64,000 nucleotides of DNA, from NCBI RefSeq assembly GCF_001677475.2, contig NZ_CP015229.1. One strand, given 5' to 3'. The notes beneath the pieces are model-generated. The model searched no databases. It saw nothing but the letters and a program-made list of their open reading frames with translations, and had not been told where the DNA came from. Both the position numbers and the translations under genes were made by a program. This DNA comes from Escherichia coli. Its GTDB lineage: Bacteria > Pseudomonadota > Gammaproteobacteria > Enterobacterales > Enterobacteriaceae. This document shows, piece after piece, positions 3,209 through 64,000 of the stretch; within the stretch, counting starts at the first letter, position 1, and every line of letters begins with the position of its first letter.

Positions 3209-4183
3209 ATGACAAAATTACAACTTAAGTACCGGGAGTTAAAAATTATCTCGGTAATCGCTGCCAGTGAAAATATCAGCCATGCCGCGACTGTACTTGG
3301 CATCGCACAGGCCAACGTCAGCAAATATCTTGCTGATTTTGAATCAAAAGTAGGTTTAAAAGTCTTTGACCGAACCACCCGGCAACTGATGCTCACACCT
3401 TTTGGTACCGCGCTGTTGCCATACATCAATGACATGCTGGACAGAAACGAGCAGCTTAATAATTTTATTGCAGATTATAAGCATGAGAAACGTGGTCGGG
3501 TCACTATCTATGCACCAACCGGCATAATTACCTATTTATCCAAACATGTAATCGATAAAATTAAAGATATCGGTGATATCACCTTATCGCTAAAAACCTG
3601 CAATCTTGAGCGTAATGCCTTTTATGAAGGCGTCGAATTTCCCGATGATTGTGATGTTTTAATCAGCTACGCTCCACCAAAAGATGAATCGCTGGTTGCC
3701 AGTTTTATTACGCAATATGTCGTAACCGCTTATGCCAGCCAGCGCTATCTTGAGAAACATCACATTAGCCGTCCTGACGAACTCGAACATCACTCCTGTA
3801 TTTTGATCGACTCAATGATGATCGACGACGCGAATATCTGGCGCTTCAACGTCTCCGGGAGTAAAGAGGTGCGGGATTATCGTGTGAAGGGAAATTACGT
3901 TTGCGACAACACGCAATCGGCGCTGGAGCTGGCACGAAATCACCTGGGGATTGTGTTTGCGCCAGACAAAAGTGTGCAGAGCGATCTGCAAGACGGCACG
4001 CTGGTGCCCTGCTTTCAGCACCCGTATGAATGGTGGCTGGATCTGGTGGCTATCTTCCGTAAACGGGAATACCAGCCCTGGCGGGTCCAGTATGTGCTGG
4101 ATGAAATGCTGCGTGAAATTCGCCACCAGCTTGCTCAGTCGCAGCAACTGCGGCCTGAACAAGCGGCGGAAAGCGAAGATTAA
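3209..4183 (+). CDS. yiaU: LysR-family transcriptional regulator YiaU
   Basis: 324-aa ORF with N-terminal HTH (…[38 protein letters not shown]…); divergent from yiaT, ATG at 3209. Confidence 0.85.
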
Positions 4184-5316
4184 TGATCGAGATAAAGGTA
4201 ATGCACCCAGCTGGTCATGCGTAATAACACTTTGCGCATCACCGAGACATGGCTGAAATGATCGGAGTAGACCGCCACCTGGGCGTAAATACCGTCTGGT
4301 AAAGCGCTCAAATCAGTATGCTCATCCAGTTCAATGGTCGCGATAACGCCATCTGAACCCGGCGCTGTGTTTAACGTCTGTAAGGTACCGGTCGACTGAT
4401 AAGCTCCACCGGGAACAGCTGGACTAATGGCTGCCAGCTTACCGCTGAATACCTTACCTGGCAGAGCATTAAACACCACTTCCGCATCGTCACCAGGAGC
4501 CAGTCGCAGCAAGGAGTTCTGACGGAACTGCGCCACGATTTGTCGTTTCTGATCGGGTATAAACACCATCACCGGACGTAGCGGCAGCGACGCGGCATAG
4601 GTACCCGGACGAATCAGGACCTGGGCCACGTAACCATCGCTCGGCGCACGCACTATCGTCTGCTCAAGGTTATATTTTGCTTCCGCGAGCTGCGCTTTCA
4701 GGCTGGCGATTAGAGAATGTTCACCCAACACCAGGCTATCCAGCTGGCTCTGGACCTGTTTTTGTTCCGCCGCCGATGACTTTACGGAGGCTTCCTGCGC
4801 CAGATAATTTTGCCGCGCCACATCAATATCGCGTTCTGAAAACGGGTTTACTTTCGCCTGGCTGCCGCGTGCGTAACGCTGATACTCTTTAGCGAATTTA
4901 TCCCGCGTGGCCTTTGCCTGCTGAGTATTCGCCGCCATCTCATCTAACTCTGCGCCCAACGCCCGCTGTTTATGTTCTGCGGTAACGATATCCGCCATCA
5001 GCCGATCCACCCGCGCCTGATAACGCGTCGGGTCCAGTCGAAAAAGCACCTCGCCTTTTTTAATCAGCGTATTTTTCTTATCCGTCACTTCAATCACCAC
5101 GCCTGTCACCTGTGGGACAACAGGGATGGAAATAACCGCTTTTTGCGCTTTAAAGGTATACGGATGGTTATAGTTCATTAACAGAATTAAACCGCTGACA
5201 ATAAATATTCCCCCCAGGGCCGCTGTGGGAATGGTCCATTTATTTACAGGAATTTTGAAGATCTTAAACATTGCCCATGCGAAAGCCACATAGGTCAAGA
5301 TAATCAGTAAATCCAT
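4180..5316 (-). CDS. yiaV: HlyD-family periplasmic adaptor (membrane-fusion) protein YiaV
   Basis: 378-aa ORF; N-terminal TM helix, coiled-coil middle, barrel-sandwich/biotinyl-like C-terminal region; ATG at 5316 lies 5 nt after the yiaW stop. Confidence 0.85.
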
Positions 5317-62068: not shown

Positions 62069-62665
62069 ATGGCAGAAAAACAAACTGCGAAAAGGAACCG
62101 TCGCGAGGAAATACTTCAGTCTCTGGCGCTGATGCTGGAATCCAGCGATGGAAGCCAACGTATCACGACGGCAAAACTGGCCGCCTCTGTCGGCGTTTCC
62201 GAAGCGGCACTGTATCGCCACTTCCCCAGTAAGACCCGCATGTTCGATAGCCTGATTGAGTTTATCGAAGATAGCCTGATTACTCGCATCAATCTGATTC
62301 TGAAAGATGAGAAGGACACCACAGCGCGCCTGCGTCTGATTGTGTTGCTGCTTCTCGGTTTTGGTGAGCGTAATCCTGGCCTGACCCGCATCCTCACTGG
62401 TCATGCACTAATGTTTGAACAGGATCGCCTGCAAGGGCGCATCAACCAGCTGTTCGAGCGTATTGAAGCGCAGTTGCGTCAGGTATTGCGCGAAAAGAGA
62501 ATGCGTGAGGGTGAAGGTTACACCACCGATGAAACCCTGCTGGCAAGCCAGATCCTGGCCTTCTGTGAAGGTATGCTGTCACGTTTTGTCCGCAGCGAGT
62601 TTAAATACCGCCCGACGGATGATTTTGACGCCCGCTGGCCGCTAATTGCCGCGCAGTTGCAGTAA
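62069..62665 (+). CDS. slmA: Nucleoid occlusion factor SlmA (TetR family)
   Basis: Conserved start ATG 62069 ([20 protein letters not shown]…), 198 aa. Confidence 0.9.
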
Positions 62666-62670
62666 TATGA

Positions 62671-62694
62671 CGCCGGATGACTTTTCATCCGGCG
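62671..62694. terminator. Hairpin between convergent slmA and pyrE
   Basis: cgccggatga-cttt-tcatccggcg, perfect 10-bp stem, 5 nt after the slmA stop and 7 nt before the pyrE stop. Confidence 0.5.
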
Positions 62695-62701
62695 AGTTTC
62701 T

Positions 62702-63343
62702 TTAAACGCCAAACTCTTCGCGATAGGCCTTAACCGCCGCCAGATGTTCCGCCATTTCCGGCTTCTCTTCCAGGTAAGCAATCAGGTCTTTCAGGGTGAT
62801 GATAGAGATCACTTTGCAGTTGTAATCACGCTCAACTTCCTGAATTGCCGAAATCTCGCCGCGCCCCCGTTCCTGACGATCGAGCGAAATCAATACGCCA
62901 GCAAGCGTCGCGCCATTGGCCTGAATAATTTCCATCGACTCGCGGATCGCCGTTCCGGCGGTGATCACATCATCCACCAGCATTACGCGTCCTTGTAACG
63001 CGCTACCGACCAGATTGCCACCTTCACCATGGTCTTTTGCTTCTTTGCGGTTAAAGCAGTACGGCAGGTCCAGGTAATGATGCTCCGCCAGCGCCACGGC
63101 AGTTGTGGTGGCAATCGGGATCCCTTTGTAAGCAGGGCCAAACAGCAGATCGAACTCAATGCCGGAATCCACCAATGCTTCAGCGTAAAAACGGCCTAAC
63201 AGTGCCAGATCGCGCCCGGTATTAAACAGCCCGGCGTTGAAGAAATAGGGGCTTTTGCGCCCGGACTTCAGCGTAAACTCGCCAAACTTTAACACCTGCT
63301 TGCTAAGCGCAAATTCAATAAACTGGCGCTGATATGGTTTCAT
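62702..63343 (-). CDS. pyrE: Orotate phosphoribosyltransferase
   Basis: Start ATG 63343 ([13 protein letters not shown]…) after GAGGAG; 213 aa. Confidence 0.95.
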
Positions 63344-63375
63344 GCCTTCGCTCCTCATCTTACTTTTCTACAGAC

Positions 63376-63403
63376 AAAAAAAAGGCGACTCATCAGTCGC
63401 CTT
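63376..63403 (-). terminator. pyrE attenuator (intrinsic terminator in the rph-pyrE intercistronic leader)
   Basis: Minus strand reads aaggcgactgatgagtcgcctt followed by 8 T (plus-strand A-run 63376-63383), between rph stop (63409-63411) and pyrE start. Confidence 0.75.
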
Positions 63404-63408
63404 AAAAA

Positions 63409-64000
63409 TCAGTTTGCCAGCGCCGCCTTCTGCGTCGCTACAATGGATTCGATTCCCCCTCGGGCCAGCGCCAACAAGGTGAGTAACTCTTCATGGGTGA
63501 ACGGCTCGCCTTCTGCCGTCCCCTGCACTTCAATGATGCGCCCGTCTTCGGTCATCACTACGTTCATGTCGGTCTCTGCGGCTGAGTCTTCAACGTATTC
63601 CAGATCGCAAACCGCTTCGCCGTTCACAATTCCGACAGAAACTGCGGCTACCATCCCTTTCATCGGGTTGGTTTTCAGCTTGCCGTTTTCCACCAGCTTC
63701 TGTAGCGCATCTGCCAGCGCCACGCAGGCACCCGTAATCGACGCGGTACGCGTGCCACCATCAGCCTGAAGCACGTCGCAGTCCAGCGTAATGGTGAACT
63801 CACCCAGCGCTTTCAAATCTACTGCCGCACGAAGAGCACGGGCGATCAGACGCTGGATTTCCATGGTGCGTCCACCCTGCTTACCTTTCGCCGCTTCACG
63901 CGCGTTACGGGTGTGGGTAGAACGTGGCAGCATGCCGTACTCTGCGGTGATCCAGCCCTGGCCCTGACCTTTCAGGAAGCGCGGCACGCCTTCTTCAATA
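63409..64000 (-). CDS. rph: Ribonuclease PH, 3' portion (5' end beyond window edge)
   Basis: ORF open to the window end; translation …[26 protein letters not shown]… ends …ATQKAALAN with stop 5 nt upstream of the attenuator hairpin. Confidence 0.9.

Follow-up and report, generated by a model that had tools for sequence, protein, structure and literature searches.

The rph–pyrE junction of an Escherichia coli chromosome has the anatomy of the wild-type intercistronic attenuator

Introduction

Ribosome position on a nascent transcript can decide whether a terminator hairpin forms, and several well-described attenuators exploit this. Those of the trp, his and leu operons sense charged tRNA: the ribosome stalls at regulatory codons, and the leader RNA switches between alternative hairpins. 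The pyrBI leader attenuator of E. coli relies on UTP-sensitive coupled transcription–translation, in which a close ribosome suppresses a Rho-independent terminator when low UTP slows the polymerase, with no antiterminator hairpin involved; the leader there is a dedicated short peptide, whose reading frame extends across the attenuator. The attenuator between rph and pyrE of E. coli (orfE–pyrE; Poulsen, Bonekamp and Jensen, 1984–1993) is close to pyrBI in its logic but uses the full-length rph gene, 238 codons long, as its leader. Unlike the trp, his and leu systems, it needs no alternative pairing, and what it senses is how fast RNA polymerase elongates.

PMC10087573 describes pyrE as controlled by transcriptional attenuation that tracks the UTP pool. 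According to PMC2784333 (citing Bonekamp 1984 and Jensen 1993), read-through in K-12 goes up when UTP falls and needs translation of the end of rph, and pyrE is properly regulated when the stop codon lies close to the attenuator loop. MG1655 carries a 1-bp deletion in rph–pyrE that lowers OPRTase (PMC2784333, PMC6941894, PMC5933015, PMC3071312). In evolution experiments, deletions that return the stop next to the loop recur (PMC2784333; PMC6941894; PMC5933015; PMC3071312); such a deletion of 82 bp, or intergenic point mutations, raise growth rate (PMC2784333, PMC6941894, PMC5933015, PMC3071312, PMC3203608).

Here we analyze the rph–pyrE junction at the end of a 64,000-nucleotide stretch of E. 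coli DNA (hereafter, the window). We read it as the canonical wild-type rph–pyrE intercistronic attenuator of this species, at a probability of roughly 0.93, with UTP sensing taken from the literature. Such an attenuator is already known, textbook and ordinary. The window agrees with the described system in everything but the allele, carrying in rph the wild-type run of five G (G5) and not the four (G4; rph-1) of the laboratory references MG1655 and W3110.

Layout of the locus

In its last 4 kb the window has three plus-strand genes, coaBC, dut and slmA, and beyond them, on the minus strand, pyrE and the 3' part of rph (Table 1). Annotated homologous records and profile matches give the synteny as yicC-rph-pyrE-slmA-dut-coaBC. 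As in annotated E. coli records, rph lies directly upstream of pyrE, both on the minus strand. The two products were identified by NCBIfam profiles well above their cutoffs, namely TIGR01966 (RNasePH; 308 bits, cutoff 141.5) for rph and TIGR00336 (pyrE; 238.6 bits, cutoff 106.8) for pyrE. Of 5426 complete E. coli genomes, 5424 matched a 1311-nt stretch spanning rph and pyrE, at 90–99.8% identity, and the genes annotated under these 5424 matches were always rph and pyrE; for the rph part, identity to annotated rph in these genomes was 98–99.8%. Over 20 kb, the waa cluster included, natural isolates matched at up to 99.3%. These identities together therefore place the window on an E. coli chromosome that is identical to no complete genome in the collection.

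Table 1. Coordinates of the features of the rph–pyrE junction in the window.
Feature	Position	Strand	Basis
rph (RNase PH), 3' 592 nt, codons 43-238 and stop	63409..64000	-	Open frame, no internal stop
G5 run, G4 in K-12 rph-1; single base separating rph+ from rph-1	63455..63459	-	Alignments
TAG triplet, premature stop of rph-1; here out of frame (ATT GTA GCG)	63438..63440	-	MG1655 translation
Wild-type rph stop TGA	63409..63411	-	Read from sequence, with translation
U spacer, 5 nt, from rph stop to stem	63404..63408	-	Read from sequence
Attenuator (intrinsic terminator) hairpin, AAGGCGACU-GAUG-AGUCGCCUU	63382..63403	-	RNAfold and terminator scan
Hairpin 5' arm	63403-63395	-	
Hairpin loop	63394-63391	-	
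Hairpin 3' arm	63390-63382	-	
U8 terminator tract; first two U stem-paired, six after the stem	63376..63383	-	Sequence read and terminator scan
pyrE Shine-Dalgarno sequence GAGGAG, 7 nt 5' of ATG	63351..63356	-	Sequence read directly
pyrE ATG	63343-63341	-	Annotation start
pyrE (orotate phosphoribosyltransferase), 213 codons and stop	62702..63343	-	NCBIfam and homologous annotation

The Shine-Dalgarno sequence of pyrE is kept as GAGGAG or AGGAG in other genera, among the loci listed. An in-frame ATG on the minus strand (63356-63358) would begin pyrE 15 nt earlier than annotated and extends the mechanically called reading frame to 218 aa; it overlaps the GAGGAG, annotations use the start at 63343 and none uses 63358, and translation very probably does not begin there. 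By consensus scan, a weak indicator, no sigma-70-like site was found on the minus strand between hairpin and pyrE ATG (63344-63381), and the sole promoter-like match of that scan on the same strand lies inside pyrE (62826-62799).

Anatomy of the junction

Read along the minus strand, the junction runs ...CTG GCA AAC TGA, TTTTT, AAGGCGACT GATG AGTCGCCTT, TTTTTT, and continues with GTCTGTAGAAAAGTAAGATGAGGAGCGAAGGC into the pyrE ATG. RNAfold and the terminator scan agree on a hairpin of 9 bp, five of them G-C, closed by a 4-nt loop, with a free energy of -14.2 kcal/mol when folded alone. The intercistronic region of 65 nt, identical to that of MG1655, thus holds a G+C-rich hairpin followed by a U tract, and rph ends so close to the 5' arm of the hairpin that a ribosome footprint spans the distance. 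The distance of 5 nt from stop to stem, which an initial sequence-only reading of this DNA had noted, proved exact; it counts the two basal A-U pairs and becomes 7 nt when measured to the G+C core. The range that this reading had marked, 63344-63420, begins at the base adjoining the pyrE ATG and reaches the third codon from the end of rph. Its further statement, that an rph frame ending immediately before the stem has the geometry for ribosome-coupled read-through into pyrE, agrees with the published model (PMC2784333, PMC6941894, PMC5933015).

On its own, the geometry of the junction does not stand out statistically: for the 77 nt at 63344-63420 the MFE z-score is a modest -1.64, and the terminator scan returned three terminator-like sites against an expected 1.6 ± 1.4. 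Nor is the 5-nt spacing special by itself, because the slmA terminator in the same window shares it: on the plus strand, the slmA stop TAA (62663-62665) is followed 5 nt later by a 10-bp, G+C-rich hairpin (62671-62694), situated between the convergent slmA and pyrE and 7 nt from the pyrE stop. The geometry owes its above-chance status to comparative evidence, namely constraint on the gap, covariation in the stem, and slmA as a control.

Some other assignments were considered and set aside. An Rfam scan of 63200-63600 at E<=10 found no family at or above its gathering score; the best match, RyhB, reached 24.5 bits against a gathering score of 55, and this hit, STnc240 and the others, all sub-threshold and driven by the terminator stem, carry no meaning as family identities. 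A bidirectional terminator was rejected, as the plus strand reads TTAAAAA after the stem and has no T run. An alternative antiterminator structure is neither evident nor needed.

Base pairing of the stem was assessed in an alignment of 83 distinct sequences reaching from the rph stop to the U tract. In these, 96.1% of stem cells are paired, and four of the nine stem pairs show changes on both sides that are compensatory. Compensatory cells number 40, a count that none of 500 shuffles reached (9.9 ± 2.6 in the shuffles). The exchanges go in both directions: in 18 sequences A-U has given way to G-C at columns 16/36, and in six the opposite has happened at columns 17/35. Sliding the 3' partner by 1–3 columns drops pairing to 28–69%. 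Covariation across these sequences thus supports base pairing of the attenuator stem.

Conservation of the stop-to-hairpin distance

To survey the junction beyond E. coli, we took the start of pyrE as an anchor that does not depend on the feature itself, using 12 back-translated residues and one genome per species. This yielded at least 120 loci from Enterobacterales, mostly Enterobacteriaceae with a few Budvicia and Limnobaculum; the sample consists of genomes sharing the 12-residue pyrE start and hence of fairly close relatives. For each locus, the rph stop was placed by C-terminus homology, and the best stem-loop was sought in the next 45 nt. The stop-to-terminator gap of slmA in the same loci served as the control for the rph gap.

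Among the matches listed, the gap from the rph stop to the first paired base is 2–7 nt in all 119 rph+ loci, being 4 nt in 58 and 5 nt in 40 of them; over 118 listed rph+ loci (one extra E. coli record dropped), it averages 4.33 nt with a standard deviation of 0.87. The stop codon itself varies at this same position (TGA in 66, TAA in 38 and TAG in 18 of the loci listed), and 31 to 171 nt separate the hairpin from the pyrE ATG among the matches listed. The distance between stop and hairpin is thus held at ~4–5 nt across the surveyed Enterobacterales while its surroundings drift, which lends the old model quantitative support derived from sequence.

These comparisons bear on whether the hairpin might be an ordinary leaky intrinsic terminator of rph, its nearness to the stop a by-product of compact gene ends. 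Terminators are commonly found a few nucleotides past stop codons, and the matching 5-nt spacing at slmA as well as the modest fold z-score would fit such an origin. However, across the same loci the slmA gap takes values between -3 and 24 nt, and the hairpins of slmA, non-homologous among the matches listed, have been replaced between genera (in nine of the listed loci, no slmA hairpin was found within 48 nt of the stop). Insertions point the same way: among the matches listed, long ones of up to ~140 nt are tolerated only downstream of the attenuator hairpin, and none falls between rph stop and stem. In K-12, moreover, pyrE expression falls when the stop is displaced 30 nt upstream, and growth is rescued once the stop is brought close again (PMC2784333, PMC6941894, PMC5933015), and read-through has already been reported there to shift with stop position. 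We consider a merely leaky rph terminator very improbable.

Slightly less probable still is that the hairpin acts mainly on a dicistronic mRNA, stabilizing the 3' end of its rph part or marking it for processing. Stable stem-loops can shield the 3' ends of cistrons from exonucleases, and a paper on the 'processing of the dicistronic mRNA' of rph–pyrE is on record (Andersen et al. 1992, listed in PMC10087573). Against this, a tract of 6–9 U immediately after the stem in 119 of the 121 loci listed is the signature of termination, and stabilization would leave the constraint on the stop-to-stem gap unexplained. A stabilizing or processing role may nonetheless co-exist with attenuation as a secondary function.

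Six survey loci from several genera (L025, L041, L069, L075, L053 and L084) have rph–pyrE spacers of 145–200 nt, owing to insertions of ~80–140 nt located between the attenuator and the pyrE Shine-Dalgarno sequence. These insertions contain long imperfect palindromes, which may resemble ERIC or REP-type elements. Budvicia diplopodorum D9 is the only locus of the 120 listed in which no attenuator could be recognized: GGCGAC...GTCGCC arms stand 17 nt apart, with no U tract after them, in a spacer of 164 nt. Its sister B. aquatica has kept a normal hairpin. One further locus, on contig CACSKA010000004.1, is labelled Chryseobacterium sp. 18061 (Bacteroidota) and has an enterobacterial rph–pyrE junction. 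It differs by one base in the 63-nt rph–pyrE spacer from Citrobacter sp. 18056, a genome of the same project, and shares with it an identical stop, hairpin and U tract. On this similarity, the Chryseobacterium assembly is probably mislabelled or contaminated.

Coupling of rph translation to pyrE transcription

By the attenuation model, rph and pyrE would form a single operon whose promoter lies ahead of rph, and the outcome at the Rho-independent terminator between them would be set by how closely the ribosome translating rph trails RNA polymerase. When UTP (and GTP) is scarce, the polymerase would slow, allowing the ribosome to catch up as far as the rph stop, 5 nt before the stem; its footprint there would cover the 5' arm, so that no hairpin could form and transcription would proceed into pyrE. 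With plentiful UTP, the polymerase would outrun the ribosome, the hairpin would form, and most transcripts would end before pyrE. In K-12 rph-1, the -1 frameshift would halt the ribosome 34 nt short of the stem.

A ribosome with a stop codon in its A site covers roughly 9–11 nt past that stop, as judged by toeprint and footprint geometry. Constrained folding with 9, 10, 11 or 12 nt past the rph stop occluded left a stem of -6.1, -4.1, -0.4 or 0 kcal/mol, respectively: occluding at least 10 nt leaves at most 4 bp, and at least 12 nt leaves nothing. With the ribosome placed at the rph-1 stop, the same calculation leaves the full hairpin free. From this folding model we infer that a ribosome halted at the wild-type stop would occlude much of the stem, whereas one at the rph-1 stop would not.

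The rph allele

The sequence-only reading had judged the strain to be rph+ and had proposed an alignment with the MG1655 rph region, expecting a single-base difference near the 3' end. Over 1311 nt, MG1655 (NC_000913.3) differs from the window by 25 substitutions and one indel, and this sole indel is the anticipated base, an extra G in the GGGGG run of the window (window GAGGGGGAA, MG1655 GAGGGGAA). Identity to the MG1655 rph-1 allele across the 3' end, which would have spoken against rph+, is therefore absent by one G.

The five G lie near codon 223, and the frame runs on from there to the wild-type end. Because the G5 run is intact, the window encodes the full wild-type C-terminus, identical to that of the annotated 238-aa RNase PH of strain 200164, and translation would therefore reach the natural rph stop. 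MG1655 rph, by comparison, has a G4 run and ends ...LALARGESNPL* after 228 aa, at a TAG that lies 34 nt before the stem as opposed to 5 nt for the stop in the window; it is annotated 'truncated RNase PH'. W3110 carries the same 65-nt allele, in keeping with the earlier attribution of the rph-1 frameshift and its premature stop to both strains. Operon, hairpin and intergenic sequence are all shared between the window and K-12 rph-1 strains (MG1655, W3110, BW25113, J53 and others). The claim that rph-1 lowers pyrE expression likewise finds its counterpart in the literature (PMC2784333, with reference to Jensen 1993 and Bonekamp et al. 1984).

Among complete E. coli genomes, the 81-nt junction of the window (last rph codons to pyrE ATG) recurs exactly in 4565 of 5424, and the 65-nt G4 allele of MG1655 in 168. 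The best 40 of these 168 carriers are nearly all MG1655, W3110, BW25113, J53 or other laboratory derivatives, and rph is annotated as intact in almost all of the 5424 genomes. Judged by these counts, rph+ is the species norm and not a distinguishing trait of the source strain.

The strain is rph+ over the visible codons 43-238, and to this extent the original assignment stands; the first 125 nt of rph (41.7 codons), together with the promoter, fall beyond base 64000 and thus outside the window, so that codons 1-42 are not part of the statement. A lesion in that outlying part, rendering the strain functionally not rph+, has room to occur in the 125 coding nucleotides and the promoter but is highly improbable, given that the 196 codons in view are all undamaged, that they agree fully with annotated full-length RNase PH, and that so few genomes of the species carry a defective rph annotation.

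The source strain thus appears to be a natural-type E. coli in which, as far as its sequence can tell, pyrE is normally regulated and the C-terminus of RNase PH is apparently functional. The rph-1 defect of MG1655 and W3110, by contrast, causes partial pyrimidine starvation in minimal medium. Beyond correct annotation of the locus, the significance of this finding is slight.

Natural variants of the attenuator

Two genomes outside the K-12 haplotype carry a G-run frameshift of the rph-1 kind. In E. coli 2015C-3101 (NZ_CP027221.1; human stool, USA), G5 has become G4 (positions 786-870 of the locus) and rph is annotated 'frameshifted'; it is the only G4 genome of non-K-12 haplotype among the 5424. 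Kluyvera genomosp. 3 YDC799 (CP022114.1, ~4083-4242) has the identical -1 frameshift in the G run, and its RNase PH ends ...ARGESNPL* at a stop 34 nt before the hairpin, while Kluyvera ascorbata has G5. Both frameshifts could represent either independent slippage or homopolymer sequencing errors.

Other variants affect the terminator itself. In E. coli CUVET16-819 (positions 878-947 of the locus; window 63384-63385), the 3' arm is without one C and reads AGTCGC-TTTTTTTT, so that G-U replaces one G-C pair and the free part of the U tract is shorter. This hairpin allele is found exactly in 486 of 5414 complete E. coli genomes (~9%), with carriers from humans, dogs, birds and water. The deleted base is probably the site of the pyrE[G-41 deletion] selected during laboratory evolution of MG1655 (PMC5933015). 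E. coli CX08 has a U tract of seven T where the window has eight (63376-63383). As their matches span 1310 nt, CUVET16-819 and CX08 were considered as possible rph-1 carriers and rejected: rph is intact in both, and the 1-nt deletion lies in the hairpin or the U tract.

Because G5 to G4 recurs outside K-12, the one-C deletion reaches ~9% of genomes and a mutation probably at its site has been selected in the laboratory, it is conceivable, though we think it unlikely, that stop–hairpin spacing and hairpin strength form a tuned set-point of pyrE expression that natural populations adjust. If so, lineages would differ heritably in their pyrimidine regulation. The window carries the majority hairpin allele.
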